From a phage, in sequence record PZ338878.1: 64,000 nt of DNA. One strand, 5' to 3'. Made by a program: the position numbers and the translations under genes. Each line of letters begins with the position of its first letter. Positions within the stretch are counted from its first letter, which is position 1. Positions 4,587 through 50,008 of the stretch are shown here, in pieces. Below the pieces are notes generated by a model. The model saw nothing but the letters and a program-made list of their open reading frames with translations, was not told where the DNA came from and made no database searches.

Positions 4587-5150
4587 TTAAATAATTTTAT
4601 TCATGTCTTGACAATGTAAAAGGTGTGAAACAGCTTTTCTAGGATCATCGTTACCTAAACGGTATGTGTGAAATAAATATAACCCACGTAGTAAACCTAG
4701 CCTTTTATTGTTAGCGTGTAATGCTTTAGAGAAAATTATATCAAACTGTATTGATCTTTCCTCAAAAGGGATTTCATTCCACAGACTCTTACGAAAGAGA
4801 AGAAAGAATCCTGCTAAGATAGCATCTGTAGGTACTTCCTCTATTGAGTTTCCCCATTCTAGATGTGCTCTTTTTGCAATCTCAATGTGGTGTAATATAT
4901 TTGGATCTTCACTTCTTTCATTATTAAATAATTGATATGTTGATCCCAATCTATTACAAGATGCACCAAGAACATCAAAATCAGGATTTGAACGGACTAT
5001 TGATTCCAACCAAGCAGGTTGTTCTGGAAGAAGAAACATTGTATCAATGTCTCTTAGGCAAATCCAACTATCTTCTGGTAAGACACTTATTGTGTCATTG
5101 ATACCTTTTCCAATATCTCCAGAAAGATAGGGAGTTATGTGAAATATCAT
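4587..5150 (-). CDS. hypothetical protein, possibly nucleotide-sugar transferase-like
   Basis: 187 aa; SWICLRDIDTMF is a weak DxD-like stretch; call is tentative. Confidence 0.25.
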   Translation of the reverse strand: MIFHITPYLSGDIGKGINDTISVLPEDSWICLRDIDTMFLLPEQPAWLESIVRSNPDFDVLGASCNRLGSTYQLFNNERSEDPNILHHIEIAKRAHLEWGNSIEEVPTDAILAGFFLLFRKSLWNEIPFEERSIQFDIIFSKALHANNKRLGLLRGLYLFHTYRLGNDDPRKAVSHLLHCQDMNKII

Positions 5151-36665: not shown

Positions 36666-36686
36666 TCGTGTTTTTATAGGTGTGTT

Positions 36687-36799
36687 AATGAGAATCATTT
36701 TCGTTTGTAAATGAGAATCATTATCATTTAACTATGTAAGTGATAATCATTCTCAGTAAGAGAATGAGAATCATTAGCAAATGAGAATTTTTCTCATTT
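36687..36799 (+). promoter_or_regulatory. cluster of five Fur-box-like palindromes (AATGAGAATCATT core)
   Basis: Copies at 36687-36699, 36710-36722, about 36741-36755 (GTGATAATCATTCTC), 36763-36775, and AATGAGAAtttTTCTCATT at 36779-36799. Confidence 0.5.
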
Positions 36800-38472: not shown

Positions 38473-38733
38473 TTGTTTTTTCTAAAAGTTTTTGATAATG
38501 TGATCGCTTTTGAACATGCTACAACGTTCGACCTGGCGAGATACGCTATCAGGTTTAAAGATAATGTTTATCCCCGTGCTGGCGGCGGTTACACTATTTT
38601 TAATCATCGCAACGCGCAACTGACTGATGTAACTAATCCAGATCCTGGAGTGTATCGGATAGGCTGGCTACCGTCAAAAGACGCTGCAAGCATGTTTAAG
38701 GTATGTAAACTACTAACAGAAGAGGCGAACTAA
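38473..38733 (+). CDS. hypothetical protein (86 aa), TTG start
   Basis: ORF track; GGGAGGA 5 nt upstream of the TTG. Confidence 0.4.
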   Translation: MFFLKVFDNVIAFEHATTFDLARYAIRFKDNVYPRAGGGYTIFNHRNAQLTDVTNPDPGVYRIGWLPSKDAASMFKVCKLLTEEAN

Positions 38734-38734
38734 C

Positions 38735-39289
38735 ATGGGGCGTGAATATGTGATCCAGTCCTGGGTAAAGCATGATGTAAATGATCCGCGCATAATACCA
38801 GATGACATGATCGATCACATGGTAGGGTATAGCGGGGAGCAGATAGGAAATCGAGCGGCAAAGAGCAACGGCAACACCAGGACGCGATCCGTTCGCCCTG
38901 GATGGCTGGCGAATGGTAACGCTGACATTGCAAGCGCCGCAGATCCAAGCGATGACGCTAAAAATAATCCCTTATACAACATTGATCCGGCTTTTAAGGT
39001 ATTGGAAGAGTATCCCGCTAAATTAGCCGCACTAGATAAGGCATACGAAGAAAAGCGCATGGCCTGGACTGTATACAACACCGCTAAAATGGTGCTAGAT
39101 GCAAAACTAATTAAAGCCCAGGAGAAGATCAATAAACTTGTTACCATAGCGCAAGAGGAAGACCAGGGCGACCAGGAGGAAGAGGAAGAAATCATGCCTA
39201 CTCTGGAAGAGGAAGAGATCCAGCCATACATGCCGACGGAAGAGGAAAAAAGACAAGCCTTAAAAAATTATGAAAATTGCATTGTGTAA
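38735..39289 (+). CDS. hypothetical protein (184 aa) with acidic Glu-rich tail
   Basis: ORF track; SD AGAAGAGG. Confidence 0.5.
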   Translation: MGREYVIQSWVKHDVNDPRIIPDDMIDHMVGYSGEQIGNRAAKSNGNTRTRSVRPGWLANGNADIASAADPSDDAKNNPLYNIDPAFKVLEEYPAKLAALDKAYEEKRMAWTVYNTAKMVLDAKLIKAQEKINKLVTIAQEEDQGDQEEEEEIMPTLEEEEIQPYMPTEEEKRQALKNYENCIV

Positions 39290-39292
39290 GGG

Positions 39293-39321
39293 TTGACATA
39301 TGCAAACAAGCCCCGTAATAT
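39293..39321 (+). promoter_or_regulatory. sigma70-like promoter
   Basis: TTGACA, 17 nt, TAATAT. Confidence 0.45.
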
Positions 39322-39369
39322 GTACCACATAGAGCGGGGCAACTTCTCAAAGGTGAAATAAAAAATCAG

Positions 39370-39397
39370 TTGACACCTGAAATCAGTAAGCTATAAT
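39370..39397 (+). promoter_or_regulatory. sigma70-like promoter (near-consensus)
   Basis: TTGACA, 16 nt, TATAAT, upstream of the ATG at 39435. Confidence 0.6.
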
Positions 39398-39434
39398 GCT
39401 TATATAGATTGAAACATTACTAAGGAATAAAAGC

Positions 39435-39614
39435 ATGGCTATTATTGCAAAAACTGAGATCGTAGGTTTAGATTCTATCCTCCTGGCATATGAGGAAGCT
39501 ATAGAAATGTATGTGGTTTCCTATGGTGATTATATCCGTGAATATAATTCTATTGATCTAGCTTTTGAATGCTATATTCGCCAGGTAAATAAAGCATACG
39601 ATGATTATCGTTAA
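39435..39614 (+). CDS. hypothetical protein (59 aa)
   Basis: Manual translation MAIIAKTEIVGLDSILLAYEEAIEMYVVSYGDYIREYNS...; SD AAGGAA. Confidence 0.4.
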   Translation: MAIIAKTEIVGLDSILLAYEEAIEMYVVSYGDYIREYNSIDLAFECYIRQVNKAYDDYR

Positions 39615-39633
39615 AAGTTTTAGTCTTGTGCTA

Positions 39634-39663
39634 TTGACAACGAACGATAGTACAAGCATAATA
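39634..39663 (+). promoter_or_regulatory. sigma70-like promoter
   Basis: TTGACA, 17 nt, CATAAT; no GC hairpin downstream. Confidence 0.45.
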
Positions 39664-39709
39664 ACTTTTATCGGGAACACTCCTAACTAATCAAAAGAGA
39701 TTAAAGATT

Positions 39710-40075
39710 ATGGCTAAAAATATCAATGTTTCTGCTTATGCTACCCTGGCTAACACTGCTAAAATTGAACTATCCAGCATTGAAGCGGTACATATTAGCG
39801 CCCGTCGCTGGTTTCAAAAGTCTTATGGTAATACTTATTTCTCTTTGATCGTTGACGTTGAGATCGGCGGTAAACTGATTGAAGTCGTTAACGTTCCGTT
39901 TCAATATGGTTATGGTGATCATTTTGATACCGTTGCCCTGGAAGAGTTTAGCAAGGTTATCAACCTGGAAGGTAAAGAGTTTTCAAATTATGCCTACCTT
40001 TCCCGTTTTTGCCGTGATAATGGGATCGCTGTATACAGTCATGCAAGCGATGTTAAACGCAAAAAAGATTTATAA
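39710..40075 (+). CDS. hypothetical protein (121 aa)
   Basis: ORF track. Confidence 0.5.
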   Translation: MAKNINVSAYATLANTAKIELSSIEAVHISARRWFQKSYGNTYFSLIVDVEIGGKLIEVVNVPFQYGYGDHFDTVALEEFSKVINLEGKEFSNYAYLSRFCRDNGIAVYSHASDVKRKKDL

Positions 40076-43604: not shown

Positions 43605-43928
43605 ATGAAATCTGTGATCGGTGTTTATTTGGATAACTCTGATTTTTTCTATCATCGTGCGCGTTTCCTTGATGCGATTGAAATGATAGAATCAGGCTTT
43701 AAAGAGTATCGCCTTGCACATGATGACCTGGAAGCATTACAGGGTAATAGTGTTTTTACATTGCAAGCTAAAGCACTATGCAAAAGCCGGATCGACATTG
43801 CAAGCAAAAAGATAGAACGCGGCATGTCCTGGTTGCGCACCGCAGAAATCAACATGGGGCAATGGTACGGCGAAAACTTAGAAAATAAACTCACTTTTGT
43901 AAATGTAGAAAATATTAAAGATTATTGA
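43605..43928 (+). CDS. hypothetical protein (107 aa)
   Basis: Trimmed in frame to ATG 43605 (MKSVIGVY). Confidence 0.45.
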   Translation: MKSVIGVYLDNSDFFYHRARFLDAIEMIESGFKEYRLAHDDLEALQGNSVFTLQAKALCKSRIDIASKKIERGMSWLRTAEINMGQWYGENLENKLTFVNVENIKDY

Positions 43929-43990
43929 TTGACAGCACACCTGATAAGTAATATATTGTATCTCATAGAGCGGGGAAATGGTTTCCCCGC
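43929..43990 (+). promoter_or_regulatory. sigma70-like promoter + conserved 5-prime UTR stem-loop
   Basis: TTGACA, 17 nt, TATATT, then GCGGGGAAA-tgg-TTTCCCCGC at 43970-43990. Confidence 0.6.
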
Positions 43991-44010
43991 CTTAACAGAA
44001 GAGATAAGAT

Positions 44011-44295
44011 ATGAAAATCACAAAAGCACTTTTCAACTATGCAGCACGTCGCGGATTATGCTTATCCGTTGAAAATTTAGGAAAAGAAGATTTTTTGTGC
44101 TTTTGGGAGCTTGAGAATGATAATGAGTGGATCTTCTCTTATTCTATCTGCAAAGATCAAAACGGTTGCTTGTTAACCTGGCGCGGTAATATCTATTTGC
44201 CGGAAGAAATAAAACAAGAATTACCAGGCACGATCATGACTGAGAAACAGCTTAAGGAAGTGATCAATTTTGTAGGGCAAAACATTAAAAAATAA
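44011..44295 (+). CDS. hypothetical protein (94 aa)
   Basis: ORF track. Confidence 0.45.
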   Translation: MKITKALFNYAARRGLCLSVENLGKEDFLCFWELENDNEWIFSYSICKDQNGCLLTWRGNIYLPEEIKQELPGTIMTEKQLKEVINFVGQNIKK

Positions 44296-44296
44296 T

Positions 44297-44357
44297 TTGA
44301 CAGTAGGCAAACAACGTAGTAAAGTTTATCACATAGGGCGGGAAATGGTTTCCCGCT
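44297..44357 (+). promoter_or_regulatory. sigma70-like promoter + conserved 5-prime UTR stem-loop
   Basis: TTGACA, 17 nt, TAAAGT, then GGGCGGGAAA-tgg-TTTCCCGC at about 44336-44357. Confidence 0.55.
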
Positions 44358-44379
44358 CACAGCAGAAGAGAAACAAATC

Positions 44380-44550
44380 ATGATCCCGACTATGTTTTAC
44401 GTATCGCGCAAAGGTCACAATATTTTTTGGTCTGAAGATTTAAATGAAGCCATGACGTTTGCCCGTGATCGTGTTGCTATCGGTGGCGTTAATATTACCG
44501 TAACCGATGAAAACGGCATTGAATACTATAACGGCGACGATGAAGAGTAA
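44380..44550 (+). CDS. hypothetical protein (56 aa)
   Basis: Manual translation MIPTMFYVSRKGHNIFWSEDLNEAMTFARDRVAIGG... Confidence 0.4.
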   Translation: MIPTMFYVSRKGHNIFWSEDLNEAMTFARDRVAIGGVNITVTDENGIEYYNGDDEE

Positions 44551-44557
44551 TTAATAA

Positions 44558-44579
44558 GGCGGGGGGAGTATTCCCCGCC
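44558..44579 (+). promoter_or_regulatory. 5-prime UTR stem-loop (variant) without obvious promoter
   Basis: ggcgggg-ggagtat-tccccgcc directly after the preceding stop and before the gene at 44609. Confidence 0.45.
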
Positions 44580-44608
44580 ATCAATTCACAACTAAAAGAG
44601 AAATCATC

Positions 44609-44803
44609 ATGGCGCTTAAAAAACTAACAAGCAATACTCGTTGGGATGAAATTGACGGGGAAGTATACATTTTCGCCCGTAAACCAGGTGATCAAAAATG
44701 GTCAAAGGCTTTTACTTGTCACCCTGCAACAATAGATCTAATAAAAAGTAAAGGTTTACGTGAAGCAGTAGCGAGAAGTTTACTGATCCCTTGTAAAAAA
44801 TAG
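44609..44803 (+). CDS. hypothetical protein (64 aa)
   Basis: ORF track. Confidence 0.45.
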   Translation: MALKKLTSNTRWDEIDGEVYIFARKPGDQKWSKAFTCHPATIDLIKSKGLREAVARSLLIPCKK

Positions 44804-44804
44804 T

Positions 44805-44864
44805 TTGACAATATGCGGTTATCTGGTAATATATACCACGTAGGGCGGGAAATGGTTTCCCGCC
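44805..44864 (+). promoter_or_regulatory. sigma70-like promoter + conserved 5-prime UTR stem-loop
   Basis: TTGACA, 16 nt, TAATAT, then GGCGGGAAA-tgg-TTTCCCGCC at 44844-44864. Confidence 0.6.
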
Positions 44865-44882
44865 AGAATAGAGAGAACTAAA

Positions 44883-44987
44883 ATGATTATTCTTACCATG
44901 ATGTGCGCGGCGGTTATTATTCCTTTGATAACGCTTATTGTTTCTGAGATCGATGATCTTCTCTTTGAAAGAAGTTTAAAAAAGTGA
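44883..44987 (+). CDS. small membrane peptide (34 aa)
   Basis: Manual translation MIILTMMCAAVIIPLITLIVSEIDDLLFERSLKK. Confidence 0.3.
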   Translation: MIILTMMCAAVIIPLITLIVSEIDDLLFERSLKK

Positions 44988-45049
44988 TTGACAACGGCTA
45001 ATAAGCTGATAATATGTATCACATAGGGCGGGGCAATAAGGCAACGCCC
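44988..45049 (+). promoter_or_regulatory. sigma70-like promoter + 5-prime UTR stem-loop (variant)
   Basis: TTGACA, 16 nt, TAATAT, then gggcg-gggcaataaggcaa-cgccc at 45026-45049. Confidence 0.5.
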
Positions 45050-45067
45050 ACTAATGAGGGTAGCATC

Positions 45068-45172
45068 ATGTTAGAGAAAATTTTCACGGTTGTAATAGTG
45101 GGCCTGGCGTTATCGGTTGGAGTGATTGCAACTATGGCTAACATGATTCTATCTTCCCACGGTATCGGCTAA
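45068..45172 (+). CDS. small membrane peptide (34 aa)
   Basis: Manual translation MLEKIFTVVIVGLALSVGVIATMANMILSSHGIG. Confidence 0.3.
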   Translation: MLEKIFTVVIVGLALSVGVIATMANMILSSHGIG

Positions 45173-45173
45173 G

Positions 45174-45398
45174 GTGAAACAAGTGATCACGAATAAGACA
45201 GGTAAAACAGAATTTTTACGTAACTTGCAGATCGGCAAGCCTGAGATCTGGTATTGCACTAAAACACCACGTGACGAAATGAAAGATTTTACCGCTACTT
45301 TACAACGTGTTAAAATATCTATCACACAGAAAAAAGCCTTGATAGTTGCAGAAAACGAGATCCCGCAAACTATTATCATTGTTGAGCGTACAGCATGA
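45174..45398 (+). CDS. hypothetical protein (74 aa), GTG start
   Basis: ORF track; alternative GTG at 45183 has AAGGTGA upstream. Confidence 0.35.
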   Translation: MKQVITNKTGKTEFLRNLQIGKPEIWYCTKTPRDEMKDFTATLQRVKISITQKKALIVAENEIPQTIIIVERTA

Positions 45399-45781
45399 AA
45401 ACAGAAAACATTAACGAAATGATCAACGGCTATAAAGAAGCCTTTATTTTTGCCGAACCAGCGACGGATCACAATGGGGAATATATTGAGAATCTAGACG
45501 ATTATGATTTTTCTTCTAGCGCCCTGGAACGTATTACCAGCGATGTGACCGCCTTTTGTAGTGCCAATGTTGCCGCTATCTCTGAGGCAATGAGCGACGG
45601 CGCTACAGCAAACCAGATCGGGAATGATTTACATTTCACCCGCAACGGGCACGGCGTAGGCTTTTGGGATCGCCCTGAAATATACACCACTAACACGGCG
45701 AACCGCCTAACAAATGCCGCTAAATTAATGCCATCGGTGCATGCTTACATTGGTGAAGATAATTTGATTTATATTGAATAA
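45395..45781 (+). CDS. hypothetical protein (128 aa)
   Basis: ORF track; ATGA overlap with upstream gene. Confidence 0.45.
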   Translation: MKTENINEMINGYKEAFIFAEPATDHNGEYIENLDDYDFSSSALERITSDVTAFCSANVAAISEAMSDGATANQIGNDLHFTRNGHGVGFWDRPEIYTTNTANRLTNAAKLMPSVHAYIGEDNLIYIE

Positions 45782-45787
45782 AAAGTA

Positions 45788-45846
45788 TTGACACCGATCC
45801 CCAATATGGTATTATTTACCACGTAGGCGGGAAATGGTTTCCCGCC
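45788..45846 (+). promoter_or_regulatory. sigma70-like promoter + conserved 5-prime UTR stem-loop
   Basis: TTGACA, 17 nt, ATTATT, then GGCGGGAAA-tgg-TTTCCCGCC at 45826-45846. Confidence 0.6.
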
Positions 45847-45869
45847 AGGTAATCAAAAAGGTAAATACT

Positions 45870-46259
45870 ATGCGCAACCTGGTTTCTGTTTCTAACGTTG
45901 AAAAATTCCAATCCTTGCAGGGTATCGTTAACAACGTAGCGCCTTTTTTAGTCAATGGCTTGATTGCAAAGATGAAGAATAAGCATCATGCGGCATGGTC
46001 TGCTTACTGCTTTGATAATGATGAAAAAGCGGCTGAAATGATGTTAGATATGCTGTTAGACAGTGTTGAATCATCTTTACCGGAAAACATCGCAGAAGAG
46101 ATCACCTATCGTTATAATATGGCGATCACTTACCAGGAGGTTGCGCAATTTAATATGATGGACGATGACGAACAACAGGATCAAGAAATGTTTTGGGAGT
46201 ATGCTGATCGTCAATCGGCTTTTGATGAAAAATTAGCGATGTATTATAACGAATATTAA
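45870..46259 (+). CDS. hypothetical acidic protein (129 aa)
   Basis: Trimmed in frame to ATG 45870 (MRNLVSV); the track start lies inside the hairpin. Confidence 0.5.
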   Translation: MRNLVSVSNVEKFQSLQGIVNNVAPFLVNGLIAKMKNKHHAAWSAYCFDNDEKAAEMMLDMLLDSVESSLPENIAEEITYRYNMAITYQEVAQFNMMDDDEQQDQEMFWEYADRQSAFDEKLAMYYNEY

Positions 46260-46273
46260 TACACGGTAAAAGA

Positions 46274-46300
46274 AAGGGGCGCACTAAGCGCCCTTTTTTG
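46274..46300 (+). terminator. intrinsic terminator
   Basis: gggcgc-actaa-gcgccc hairpin followed by TTTTTTG. Confidence 0.65.
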
Positions 46301-46644
46301 TATTCTTTTTTCACGATGGAAACAACACGTAAAGAATAGGCGTAAAGGTGGCGTAAAACCAGCTAAAACCGATTGTAACCGTTTAAACAAGGTAGGGATG
46401 ATTAATCACCTTACCAGGATGAAAAAGCCGTTATAAAGCTATTTAGAGCGTTTAAAGCACACAGGAAATAATTTGCTTTTTATCTTGCCTTTTATTCTGC
46501 TTTTGATTATTATTATGGAACGGGCGGCACCTGGGGACAGGGGAAGATAATCACCGGACGACCCCGCTATATATTGATAGCTAATAACTATCAAACAACA
46601 AAACATCAAAGGAATAAACTATCAAATCTTTACAATTCTACCTA

Positions 46645-46673
46645 TTGACCGATAAATCATAACAGTTTAATAT
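46645..46673 (+). promoter_or_regulatory. sigma70-like promoter
   Basis: TTGACC, 17 nt, TAATAT, upstream of the gene at 46722. Confidence 0.45.
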
Positions 46674-46721
46674 TGTTTTTAGAGGGTAGAACATACCCAA
46701 AACGAAAACAGGAAAAAGAAG

Positions 46722-46958
46722 ATGAAAGAAGTCATGATCCTCAAAAAATCACCTATTTTACGTGGTGGCTTTATCGCTTACTCTGATGATCTGTTAATTG
46801 CAACGGTTGCAAAAATACTAAAATCAGAAGAGGATAGTAAAAACGGCGTTTATCGTATCTGTTTCACCCGTGGAAAATTACAAGGCAAGATCGCTTATGC
46901 TTTTGATTTACAAGATGTAAATGATAAAATCTGCGCTGTTATTGATTATGCAAAATAA
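46722..46958 (+). CDS. hypothetical protein (78 aa)
   Basis: ORF track. Confidence 0.45.
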   Translation: MKEVMILKKSPILRGGFIAYSDDLLIATVAKILKSEEDSKNGVYRICFTRGKLQGKIAYAFDLQDVNDKICAVIDYAK

Positions 46959-46970
46959 TTAACTTTCTTA

Positions 46971-46999
46971 TTGACACCGGATCACGCTTACATTATTAT
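46971..46999 (+). promoter_or_regulatory. sigma70-like promoter
   Basis: TTGACA, 17 nt, TATTAT; no GC hairpin downstream. Confidence 0.5.
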
Positions 47000-47045
47000 T
47001 TATCACGTAGGGCAAATCATTTTAAACGGTAAACGAGGAAACACC

Positions 47046-47429
47046 ATGAGCAATATCATCAACCTGGCGGCTACTGTAAACGGCAAAGACTTTAACGGCG
47101 CTGTAGACCGTGATCCTATGTGGTGCTTATCAGTGTTCAAAGGTGACTTGGTTGAAGTTAGAACAACCGAAGGTTATAGCGACGATTATAAATGCGAGAT
47201 CCATTTACATAACTGGTACACGGGTAAAACTTATGCGCTGAATCACGCGTTTATCGGGAAAATTGAATATCGCGAAATGATCGACGAAGAAACGGGGCAA
47301 GATTTTAGCGATTATGTTTATATTCGTTCCGAAACATTAGCCGAACGGTTGATCGAGAAAATGAAAGCAAAAAATAAAATTAATTTAGCTCATTGGCTTG
47401 ATATAACAAACGATCCAGCTTATAAGTAA
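47046..47429 (+). CDS. hypothetical protein (127 aa)
   Basis: Trimmed in frame to ATG 47046 (MSNIINLAA, GAGGAA upstream); the track start overlaps the promoter. Confidence 0.5.
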   Translation: MSNIINLAATVNGKDFNGAVDRDPMWCLSVFKGDLVEVRTTEGYSDDYKCEIHLHNWYTGKTYALNHAFIGKIEYREMIDEETGQDFSDYVYIRSETLAERLIEKMKAKNKINLAHWLDITNDPAYK

Positions 47430-47443
47430 ATAACATTTCACAC

Positions 47444-47472
47444 CAGGGCGCACAAAGCGCCCTTTCTTTTTA
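47444..47472 (+). terminator. intrinsic terminator ending the small-gene array
   Basis: agggcgc-acaaa-gcgccct hairpin followed by TTCTTTTT. Confidence 0.65.
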
Positions 47473-47676
47473 CCTAAATAAAGATGATAGCTTTTACCTA
47501 TCAAAAACGTTCACCGAAAAAAGTGAATAGATCGCGGTATCGAGCTAATCAAGGAGCAGATGAACAACCATACCATGAAGATCATAAGGCGTTTACAACG
47601 TGTTTTAGACCGCTTATTTTTAATTTCTCCATGTAACTATCTGGCAAAAACAGCCTTTTTCTTGTCTTTCCTCTTA

Positions 47677-47751
47677 AATGATAATCATTCTTATTTATAG
47701 CTGATTATTTATGCAATAAACTGCATAATGCAATAATGATAATCATTCTTA
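47677..47751 (+). promoter_or_regulatory. two copies of the palindrome AATGATAATCATT (Fur-box-like core) with identical flanks
   Basis: AATGATAATCATTCTTA at 47677-47693 and 47735-47751. Confidence 0.5.
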
Positions 47752-48110
47752 ACTTATGACCATCTAACCTATAAAATAATAAGCTATCTAACTAAATTAA
47801 AACTAATTATCTCACCTTTATTTATAATTTACTGTTATTATCTCATTGATAACCTTATATTAAACAACAATAACTAATATAAATCATTACTAAGCTAAAT
47901 ATAATCTATCTAACCTTTAAAACTATAACTATAATCTATCGAATTGTTGCACAAAGTAACTATTAAATTGTTAGTAACATTACTAAATAATTAATATCCT
48001 ATCTATTTATGATCTAATCTTTACCTTACTATCTATTACCTAAATAATCATTTCATACCGTAATAATTTCATATAATAATTATAACAAGAAATATAATTA
48101 GCAAGCGTAT

Positions 48111-48290
48111 CATTAGCAGCCTATGCCGGACACATAGGCGGCTAATAATAACGCAACTACACACCTCACATAATAACTATCACCGATAGTTATTATCTGT
48201 GCTTATGTAGCTTGCAACAATTGCAAGCGCAACAATATACATGGTATATTGTATTCCCTTACATTGTTGCGGTGCGTTATTATTAGCTAA
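48111..48290 (+). repeat. nested inverted repeats / palindromes in AT-rich non-coding region
   Basis: Perfect 15-bp arms GCTAATAATAACGCA (48141-48155) and TGCGTTATTATTAGC (48273-48287); palindromes ttagcagcctatg...cataggcggctaa, ataactatc-acc-gatagttat, cttgcaa-caa-ttgcaag. Confidence 0.6.
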
Positions 48291-48662
48291 TGTTTGGAAC
48301 ATTGGCTATAATATAAGCTACCCAATAATAAGTTATGCAATAATAAACATAGTGAATAATTACCCTGATGATCATAATGCGCCACCTTCCAGGGGCGCTA
48401 TGTGAACACAAAGAAATCTTTCTTGTCAAGAAAAATATTACCATTATTGCGCAAAATTATTTATATATGAATAGACGGTTTTTCATACTATTGCCCCCCC
48501 CAAATTATGCCCCTTTTGTTGGGTACAACTATCCCTATTTGTTGCAATGTATACCTTATTTGTTGAGCATAGTTATAGCCTATTTGTTGAGCCTACTTTC
48601 TTAAAAGCGCAATAAATTAGAATTATCTTGATTTTTAGGGCGTTTTATAGTATAGAAAATAT

Positions 48663-48681
48663 GCAAATGATAATCATTATC
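48663..48681 (+). promoter_or_regulatory. Fur-box-like site (17 of 19 matches to GATAATGATAATCATTATC as recalled)
   Basis: gcAAATGATAATCATTATC read directly; further degenerate copies at about 48848-48878. Confidence 0.5.
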
Positions 48682-48933
48682 AGCTATCTTCCACGGGTAG
48701 CACTATTTCACGCAGGATCATTTCATTTGGCAAGGTGTATATAGATGTTTAGAAATGCCAAGCCATTGATTTGCTTAGAATTTATCTGTTTTGTTGGGAA
48801 TAGTGCCTTTATTGTCCAGAAAATAATCAAAAGTCTTATAAGTCATTGAATGATAATGCAAATGATAATAATTCTCATTGATATTTGAGGGGGACGGTCG
48901 GCAGAAATCGGGGGGCGCTGAAAATCGCGTTAA

Positions 48934-49000
48934 NNNNNNNNNNNNNNNNNNNNNNNNNNNNNNNNNNNNNNNNNNNNNNNNNNNNNNNNNNNNNNNNNNN
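48934..49000. other. 67-nt run of N (assembly gap or masked sequence)
   Basis: Literal n characters; flanks are GC-rich (gggggacggtcggcag / agggggtgtgtcg) unlike the surrounding AT-rich DNA. Confidence 0.95.
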
Positions 49001-49318
49001 AGGGGGTGTGTCGAAATAAATCGGGTATACCGGAAAATTTTTGTGGCATAGATATTTATTTGTCTATATTATGTACAAAGGGGTGTGTTAAAAATAATAG
49101 GTATATATAGAATAATTGATAGGGAAATCCTATACTAAATCCTTCATTAATGATGTTTCTATGTGGCTGTCCTTGTAACAGATGAAAAGACGCTGTATGA
49201 TGTGTGAAAGACAGAATCAAAGATGCAAATAATACTTGCATTGAATAGAAATGTCTGTACACTGTGTTCCATATAATATGCAATACCGCGCATAACAAAC
49301 TACTAATGAGAGGTGTAA

Positions 49319-49777
49319 ATGAAAACTGTATCTTTGTATCTTGCTAACACGGAGCGTGTACATAATCTGGTAAAAGAATGCGGTGTGAGTGTTCAATTTA
49401 ACACAGGAAAGCCTTCCGTGGTGACAGGCAGCGAGATGTGTGTTATTGATTTCATCAATGAATATTTTCGTGGAAAACCTATCGCTCGGCACTTCATTCA
49501 AGAAATGCGAGATGTAGAGCAGGATTATGAATTCTACCCAGAAATTTGTGAACGTTATGAAACAATTCTTAGTTCTGTAGAAGATCCAGATACTAGTGAA
49601 ACAGGTGCTTCCCACTTACTGTGGATGTTGAGTGAAATTCAGGATGGGTGTAATGGTATGTCTGAAACCAAACGCCATCGTTGGTTAGGCTATATTCAGG
49701 GTGTTATGGTTATGAAAAACCTTATTACAGTGAACGATGAACGTAATGCTACACGCCCCGTCTTTAATGGAGCATAA
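49319..49777 (+). CDS. hypothetical protein (152 aa)
   Basis: ORF track; SD GAGAGGTG. Confidence 0.45.
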   Translation: MKTVSLYLANTERVHNLVKECGVSVQFNTGKPSVVTGSEMCVIDFINEYFRGKPIARHFIQEMRDVEQDYEFYPEICERYETILSSVEDPDTSETGASHLLWMLSEIQDGCNGMSETKRHRWLGYIQGVMVMKNLITVNDERNATRPVFNGA

Positions 49778-49778
49778 C

Positions 49779-49994
49779 ATGAAAAGCATTAGGGTGTGTA
49801 TTGAAAATAATTGTGGCTATCTGGGGTTGACACACGTCACTTTCCCTCTTATATTAGATGCCGATATAGCTTACAGCGGAGTTGCTTATGTGTCATTCAA
49901 GACAATGAGCCAAGTACCTGGCTGGAATTGGGAAGTGGTTGATGTTGTTGAAGGAGAAGATTATGTTTTCCTTCCACACGAATATACTGTTTAA
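49779..49994 (+). CDS. hypothetical protein (71 aa)
   Basis: Trimmed in frame to ATG 49779 (MKSIRV, GGAG upstream). Confidence 0.4.
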   Translation: MKSIRVCIENNCGYLGLTHVTFPLILDADIAYSGVAYVSFKTMSQVPGWNWEVVDVVEGEDYVFLPHEYTV

Positions 49995-50008
49995 AAGAGG
50001 AAAAGAAT

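Follow-up and report, generated by a model that had tools for sequence, protein, structure and literature searches.

The DNA considered here is a stretch of 64,000 nucleotides (sequence record PZ338878.1; referred to throughout as the window, with positions counted from its first base) from a phi92-like myovirus of the genus Justusliebigvirus, its neighbourhood being syntenic with that of phage phi92 throughout. Near the right end of the genome lies a gene-free stretch of approximately 1.9 kb (47430–49318, including a run of N) in which the longest open reading frame (ORF) is no more than 78 aa, in agreement with the initial annotation of this DNA, which had described an AT-rich region without a convincing ORF. 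This stretch contains, at 48119–48287, a palindromic element which can be drawn as a branched hairpin, or cloverleaf, of approximately 170 bases: a GC-rich hairpin and, after it, a junction of three arms which an outer stem closes. The reading that we favour, tentatively, is that phi92-like and rV5-like phages use this element as a cis-acting DNA structure in processing the concatemer junction, on its right-hand side.

The outer stem, P1, is formed by a perfect 15-bp inverted repeat, the 5' arm of which (GCTAATAATAACGCA, 48141–48155, + strand) is separated by 117 nt from its exact reverse complement (TGCGTTATTATTAGC, 48273–48287, + strand). The initial annotation had drawn attention to this repeat and to the palindromes nested within it, and all are present as described. 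The first of these (ataactatc-acc-gatagttat, within 48167–48199) belongs to arm A (48157–48210, + strand), which consists of a base helix, CTACA/TGTAG (48157–48161/48206–48210), an internal loop and a long hairpin, CACATAATAACTATC-ACC-GATAGTTATTATCTG, whose 15-nt halves (48167–48181/48185–48199) are 93% complementary around a 3-nt loop. The second is arm B (CTTGCAA-CAA-TTGCAAG, 48211–48227, + strand), which occurs at a single site in the window. To these we can add two further parts. Arm C (48228–48271, + strand) pairs CGCAACAAT (48228–48236) with ATTGTTGCG (48263–48271) below a variable apical insert, which is missing or shorter in most Phapecoctavirus-like and Klebsiella-phage relatives. Hairpin H1 (48119–48139, + strand; GCCTATG and CATAGGC around the loop CCGGACA) is GC-rich, lies immediately 5' of the outer stem and is present in the minimum-energy folds. 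It is preceded by a 5' flank, ATCATTAGCA (48109–48118, + strand), which is nearly invariant in the alignments and the ATTAGC of which has an alternative pairing partner in the bases at the start of the outer stem, by which H1 would be lengthened.

A structure of this kind is not expected by chance. First-order Markov simulations predict 0.03 perfect 15-bp inverted repeats (gap 3–200 nt) for 64 kb, and 0.004 for every 1.5 kb of the AT-rich composition found here. Secondary-structure prediction, one of the checks proposed in the initial annotation, returned a branched fold with a z score of about −8: the 201-nt stretch analyzed scored −8.0 as + strand RNA, −7.75 as − strand RNA and −8.04 as DNA relative to dinucleotide shuffles, none of which folded as well.

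The 1.5 kb around the element shows 91–97% identity to approximately 60 Justusliebigvirus genomes, including phi92, BME3, UAB_1 and PaulScherrer. Sensitive BLAST searches found the element itself in 133 phage records, with 95–100% identity in Justusliebigvirus and 73–81% in Phapecoctavirus and the Klebsiella-infecting Stephanstirmvirinae; that of ECGD1 is 100% identical, the flanks there being 93%. Between genera it is among the few alignable islands of the non-coding stretch, and the top-scoring island within it. Scans of metagenomes and IMG/VR yielded 12 further elements; flanking outer-stem arms were present in 12 of 47 metagenome pattern matches, the rest being treated as chance. There is one copy of the element per genome, and its orientation is the same in every genome examined. 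No second or flipped copy was found in the genome, opposite-strand hits being echoes of the palindromes, and nothing supports the recombination hotspot which the initial annotation had listed among possible roles.

Within the Stephanstirmvirinae the structure is maintained by compensatory change on both sides of its stems. In a structure-blind MAFFT alignment of 26 distinct sequences 12 of 43 pairs show double changes and 97% of cells are paired, against 20–47% in slid controls; the observed covariation score was reached by no shuffle, bearing in mind that the shuffle control ignores phylogeny and that covariation counts sequences and not independent events. After refitting to a covariance model (R1) built for the element, the figures are 14 of 49 pairs and 98% of cells for 25 distinct sequences (slid controls 21–48%), but this alignment leans toward the model and the MAFFT figures are the conservative ones. 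All 15 pairs of P1 are kept in 25/25 distinct sequences, three of them with double changes. Compensatory double changes also occur in three of the seven pairs of H1 (100% of cells paired), in six of the nine apical pairs of arm A and in two pairs of arm C, in which 97% of cells are paired after the refit. The stem of arm B is invariant across the subfamily (6/7 pairs never vary in the refit) while its 3-nt loop varies; without variation the stem is silent on pairing, for or against, and its invariance argues instead for recognition of the sequence itself. The unpaired junction and loop bases of the element are likewise conserved.

The same architecture, a perfect outer stem of 18–19 bp around nested hairpins, is shared by the Vequintavirinae rV5, LL12, PVP-SE1, GAP31 and Av-05. 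Phage rV5 matches model R1 (37 bits, E = 4e-8) within the 2.6-kb "non-coding" box of its map; its 18-bp perfect repeat, GACATAATATAAAAGCAG, has arms 149 nt apart around nested palindromes (DNA fold z −9.5) and is preceded by a GC-rich hairpin, CGCGAC-GGA-GTCGCG, the counterpart of H1. The element is present in approximately 120 Vequintavirus records. PVP-SE1 and GAP31 (Seunavirus) and Av-05 (Avunavirus) possess, in the equivalent non-coding gap, a perfect 18–19-bp repeat with arms 173–188 nt apart and nested perfect repeats. The covariance model finds the element in four of the five genera examined (Av-05 scoring 22.5 bits), and PVP-SE1 and GAP31 were located by their perfect inverted repeats. 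The 5' arms of the outer stem are related across lineages (…AATAACGCA…, …ACAATAAC…), and each of the eight lineage-specific variants of this stem is exactly complementary to its own 3' arm (8/8). As a side observation, a series of GenBank entries labelled "Campylobacter phage" with C. jejuni as host (MG065635–MG065676) is 85–99% identical in this region to E. coli phages of the phi92-like or rV5-like type, and these host labels look doubtful.

Could such palindromes be functionless, kept perfect in a gene-free spacer by hairpin-templated (template-switch) repair? Two-sided changes which lack G-U intermediates and include CG-to-GC swaps are what templated correction would yield. We nevertheless regard this as very improbable. 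The stems are invariant in Vequintavirus, where loops and flanks vary and the flanks are 80–88% identical; the element is the best-conserved island across genera; its architecture, single copy, position and orientation are kept over five genera of two subfamilies; and unpaired junction and loop bases are conserved too.

Several more familiar identities were considered and rejected. No reading frame is conserved among eight relatives, the alignment having indels of many different lengths, and this disposes both of a protein-coding gene and of the 40-aa ORF annotated in some records on the − strand over the element. Several genomes carry 30–40-aa "hypothetical proteins" across the palindromes and the spacer (for example UAB1_gp257, at 4781–4903 of our record L002, with further cases in record L068 and at other loci); because no frame is conserved these are probably spurious. 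In all records inspected the element is either unannotated or lies under such tiny hypothetical ORFs. A scan of 46000–50000 against Rfam at E values up to 1 gave no family matching the element, the sole match, SraG, being sub-threshold and outside it (46179–46298), and ARAGORN found neither tRNA nor tmRNA in the whole window. A sigma-70 promoter is not indicated, as around the element there are 16 promoter-like sites against 12.6 expected, none of them conserved. Nor is an intrinsic terminator, the only terminator-like site in 47400–49400 being that at 47445–47463. A miniature inverted-repeat transposable element would not be expected as a single copy at a syntenic site, and the sequences flanking the element (GGCG and TAAT) are no target-site duplication. 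Among 185,579 bacterial and archaeal genomes (596 Gb) the element is absent apart from one probable chance match, and this near-absence speaks against a bacterial or prophage origin. Two short motifs, GCAAGCG as primosome-like and TAACTAT as promoter-like, were dropped, the first not being enriched and the second having no consistent context.

The literature offers little help. The genome papers on these phages mention their terminal repeats and not the element, and we found in open-access sources nothing useful on palindromes or origins in the Stephanstirmvirinae or on transcriptomes of these phages. The PhageMaP paper proved not to be relevant, its Bas63 being a Felixounavirus. The genome paper of rV5 (PMC3606486) labels the region just "non-coding" and reports that an origin could not be located by skew analysis.

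Several properties bear upon whether the fold is one of DNA or of RNA. Stems of the P1 type (15–19 bp) are perfect Watson-Crick helices in eight lineages, pair changes are nearly all from one Watson-Crick pair to another (including swaps of CG to GC) G-U intermediates being all but absent, loops of 3 nt cap two of the arms, and both strands are equally exceptional relative to shuffles. These features fit a structure at the level of DNA better than a typical RNA, and we infer that the element acts as DNA. A structured non-coding RNA gene of approximately 150–220 nt, on either strand and processed from a longer transcript, which might act in regulation, in anti-defence or, like the pRNA of phi29, in packaging, seems to us distinctly unlikely. 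It would account for the compensatory changes in four helices, a classic signature of structured RNA, for the conserved loop and junction sequences, and for the mismatch events on the + strand, where approximately 6–7 independent A-C events against a single G-T would be G-U in a transcript of the − strand. One would, however, not expect of it such long stems free of G-U, triloops on two arms or equal behaviour of the two strands against shuffles. Furthermore, it has no Rfam match, promoters and terminators are no more frequent than chance predicts, on neither side is one conserved between genera, and the intrinsic terminator upstream at 47445 blocks read-through on the + strand.

The tests of strand do not agree. 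The mismatch events point to the − strand. Raw minimum free energy favours the − strand in 34/34 sequences, largely because the loops of the + strand are C-rich, which is a matter of composition. In the minimum-energy fold of the + strand a little more of the consensus is recovered, P1 being formed on both strands in every case. Since mismatches, raw energy, equal z scores and fold recovery thus conflict, we leave the folding strand undecided and keep RNA in contention.

The direct terminal repeat (DTR) of the window was identified by homology with phi92. It occupies 48590–48932 (+ strand, 343 bp, a single collapsed copy in the record) and is 94.5% identical to phi92 1–344; in phi92 positions 1–343 equal 148270–148612, the two copies carrying the annotation of left and of right terminal repeat, as they do in UAB_1, and the record of BME3 begins at the DTR, which PhageTerm called at 342 bp. 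Between the end of P1 and the left DTR boundary there are 302 nt in the window, 251 nt in phi92 (annotated 343-bp repeat), 208 nt in Schickermooser (an exact 329-bp repeat found in this analysis) and 211 nt in LL12 (a 459-bp DTR by PhageTerm). The order of element, spacer and DTR is the same in all four, as is the orientation; DTR positions are known for these three genera (window/phi92, Schickermooser and LL12). With a gap of 208–302 nt the genome ends therefore lie close to the palindromes, but not at them, and the palindromes end approximately 645 nt before the right physical end in the window (approximately 645–815 nt across the phages).

The initial annotation had proposed a replication origin, packaging site or recombination hotspot, to be abandoned if the genome termini mapped elsewhere and the region were poorly conserved. 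Comparison with the genome ends of relatives places the DTR 302 nt away and finds the element strongly conserved, and that ground for abandoning the proposal therefore falls away. What stands of it is a conserved, non-random cis-element tied to the genome ends; what does not is any coincidence of the termini with the palindromes themselves.

Four copies of CCYTATTTGTTG, composed of TTTGTTG units, form a tandem array (48505–48589, + strand) which ends exactly at the left boundary of the DTR. LL12 has a GTGTCA-type tandem array in the corresponding position (1915–1971 of record L072), and such arrays thus adjoin the DTR boundary in both subfamilies; the repeat boundary of T7 is also flanked by short tandem motif arrays. 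The DTRs of phi92-like and phAPEC8-like phages share the motif GAAAAT(T)CGCGTTA at their right end. Judged from these motifs, the boundary arrays, with the shared right-end motif, are likely to be signals for terminase cleavage or recognition. The element and the boundary have sequence in common in several phages: in LL12 an 11-mer of the 3' arm of the outer stem recurs in the boundary array (P = 0/300 shuffles), in PVP-SE1 and Av-05 the heptamer at the end of the arm is repeated 47–90 nt downstream, and TTGTTG is clustered, in the window, both in arm C and in the boundary array. LL12 also has a 20-nt direct repeat, ATGCAAACGAATGGCATGGC, one copy of which (1544–1563) lies just 5' of the element and the other (1837–1856) in the spacer before the DTR.

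A tract of 450 nt (47650–48100, + strand) adjoins the element on its 5' side. It has 18–26% GC and its GC skew is strongly negative, at about −0.3 to −0.7, the + strand being nearly free of G. It contains repeats of the CTATCTA type, all in one orientation (47784, 47906, 47999, 48029); the short repeats picked out in the initial annotation were found in two copies each, ctatctaac at 47784 and 47906 and taatctatc at 47902 and 47932. The tract could be a region of unwinding or of iterons, and one might then see the whole as the core of the general (primary) replication origin, in which the tract unwinds and the fold loads or primes the helicase-primase, closeness to the DTR being incidental or serving only the formation of concatemers. 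The single copy per genome would suit an origin, as would the tract preceding the element in Schickermooser (A-rich, ~30% GC) and, more weakly AT-rich, in LL12; the authors of the rV5 paper left a vacancy in finding no origin by skew analysis, and T7 PhiOR is an example of an origin situated just inward of the right repeat. We consider an origin unlikely all the same. The sequence of the tract cannot be aligned between genera (47792–48093 is without cross-genus similarity), the turning point of the cumulative GC skew in the window coincides with a change of gene orientation and not with the element, no initiator gene adjoins it, and the fixed spacing and orientation relative to the DTR would be left unexplained. 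A DnaA-dependent origin can be dismissed despite the AT-rich tract, as DnaA boxes are absent from 47.4–49.3 kb and TTATCCACA, allowing up to one mismatch, has no hit in 43636–50008.

Sites resembling the Fur box (E. coli consensus GATAATGATAATCATTATC) were encountered at 36684–36778, 47676–47752, 48663–48681 and 48860–48880 of the window, two of them inside the DTR, and similar boxes are present in the DTRs of Schickermooser and LL12. Five sites with no more than three mismatches were seen against 0.04 expected by chance, in addition to weaker copies. They may be iron-regulated early promoters or sites for a phage protein.

Such boxes, on both sides of the element and within the DTR, together with the resemblance of arm A to a 9+3+9 operator, would be accommodated if the region were a signal for DNA entry or early regulation, that is, a stop or anchor site like the iss of T5 or a set of palindromic operators to which dimeric proteins would bind in duplex form so as to govern early transcription about the genome ends. 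The T5 region (iss/Repeat Region 3) does offer a parallel: a conserved, gene-free 1.2–1.7 kb with direct and inverted repeats and nested palindromes, adjoining the boundary of the terminal repeat and better conserved than the neighbouring genes. According to Davison, however, 25 T5-like phages share a DnaA-box array in their iss regions; T5 has eight ordered boxes, and there are none here. The T5 region, moreover, lies mostly inside a repeat of ~10 kb, whereas the element is outside a repeat of 343 bp and at the right end only; judging from gene direction the left end would enter first, in which case the element would enter last. Two-step injection is not known to us for phi92-like or rV5-like phages. 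Four or five different palindromes would each need a protein of their own, and a covarying long-range stem with arms 98–188 nt apart is not the geometry of an operator. A role in entry or early regulation is therefore, in our estimation, improbable.

Other structured signals near viral ends invite comparison. Parvoviruses replicate by a rolling hairpin, and like their inverted terminal repeats (ITRs), for example the T-shaped hairpin of adeno-associated virus (~145 nt), the element has an outer stem around small perfect palindromic arms. It differs in lying ~645–815 nt from the physical end, in being present once and not twice, and in its constant orientation, without flip/flop, in a phage genome that is double-stranded. 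The complementary-strand origin of G4, the primosome assembly sites of phiX174 and ColE1 and the single-stranded DNA promoter of F are clusters of hairpins of ~100–300 nt which act only when the DNA is single-stranded, their stems being kept by complementarity. The element is not known to be related to them in sequence, and those signals serve single-stranded replicons or transfer intermediates. The pRNA of phi29 is a structured RNA of ~170 nt, encoded near the genome end and needed for packaging, in a phage with protein-primed ends and a dedicated promoter; as noted above, the element has neither an Rfam match (E up to 1) nor an excess of promoters.

The closest parallel in position is T7, in which the packaging signal is described as comprising the right-end origin PhiOR and the concatemer junction, with a repeat of 160 bp (bioRxiv 10.1101/2024.04.20.590424); PhiOR is annotated at 39229 of 39937. 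There, as here (208–302 nt), a non-coding element lies a few hundred base pairs inside the right copy of a short DTR. A fold-back DNA structure has also been proposed as a processing intermediate in T7, namely the hairpin end of Chung, Nardone and Hinkle (1990), as cited in PMC11482910, and the replication modules are related in that rV5 encodes a primase-helicase like T7 gp4 (PMC3606486). There are differences as well: the right end of T7 (38700–39937) has only imperfect inverted repeats of 10–12 nt and scores no more than 7.2 bits with model R1, and T7 uses a promoter for its own RNA polymerase, none being evident at the element. The comparison is thus positional, and a requirement for the element in packaging is putative. 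Taken as a whole, the element resembles known cis-acting structured DNA near viral ends and lacks the sequence or the defining features of the T7 signal, of the T5 iss and of parvovirus ITRs.

Two neighbouring features complete the description of the locus. The last gene before the non-coding stretch, at the right end of the genome (47046–47429), specifies a homolog of the T4 gene 30.8 product, found in 1049 phage records which are mostly T4-like (~40% identity). Being a widespread small gene of the T4 type, it was uninformative as an anchor to distant relatives. It is followed by the intrinsic terminator (47445–47463, + strand), which marks the start of the non-coding stretch and which is annotated at the equivalent place in Paula, phAPEC8 and Schickermooser. 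The run of N (48934–49000, 67 nt) begins one base past the DTR and 646 nt past 48287, the initial annotation having put the distance at about 650 nt. It stands in place of approximately 69 nt present in phi92 (345–413), including a small CTCGC-AA-GCGAG hairpin, and is a masked or unresolved stretch and not a junction of unrelated sequences.

Returning to the concatemer junction, we favour this reading, with due reserve, because of the fixed spacing and orientation of the element relative to the DTR, its deep conservation and its DNA-like stems, and also because of the motifs shared with the boundary in LL12, PVP-SE1 and Av-05, the precedent of T7 and the gp4-like primase-helicase of rV5. One might picture that replication, supercoiling or the packaging machinery opens the duplex, and that one strand, or both as a cruciform, would then fold into a hairpin and a junction of three arms, with the perfect 15-bp stem at its base. 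The end-processing machinery would recognise this fold together with its sequence-invariant parts (arm B and the junction bases), the candidate readers being the terminase and/or a replisome containing the T7-gp4-like primase-helicase. Recognition might lead to a local event (priming or replication across the junction, or the building of a cutting complex), with the result that the 343-bp DTR situated 302 nt downstream would be duplicated and cut at the array of tandem motifs.

A number of points weigh against this proposal. The element lies 200–300 nt off the cut site and not at it, and the right end of T7 has no comparable structure, so that the precedent is one of position only. For motifs common to the element and the boundary array, LL12 alone gave a significant result, and neither the window nor phi92 did. 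Read on the − strand, the A-C mismatches that prevail on the + strand would be G-U or G-T, which suits an RNA of the − strand just as well. The perfection of the arms could partly reflect template-switch repair and not selection. The link to the DTR is drawn from ends mapped in three genera, and the role itself is a deduction from sequence analysis.

To our knowledge there is no settled account, even for T7, of how phages with short DTRs recognise the concatemer junction and double the one copy of the repeat which it contains, and the question is unexplored in the rV5/phi92 group, which includes many candidates for phage therapy. A discrete, covarying cis-element of 150–220 nt, with exact coordinates and a covariance model, provides a handle on it. 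In practical terms it is of use in genome annotation, where spurious ORFs have been placed over it, in the choice of genome start points, in phage engineering and in the design of transducing plasmids. A bolder version of the proposal, to which we can give only modest credence, is that the element serves the entire rV5/phi92 group as a dedicated piece of folded single-stranded nucleic acid, whether a DNA cloverleaf or an RNA of the packaging type, which marks each concatemer junction and triggers duplication of the DTR. If this were true, it would constitute a new class of signal for the generation of terminal repeats, having its own structure-specific reader protein.

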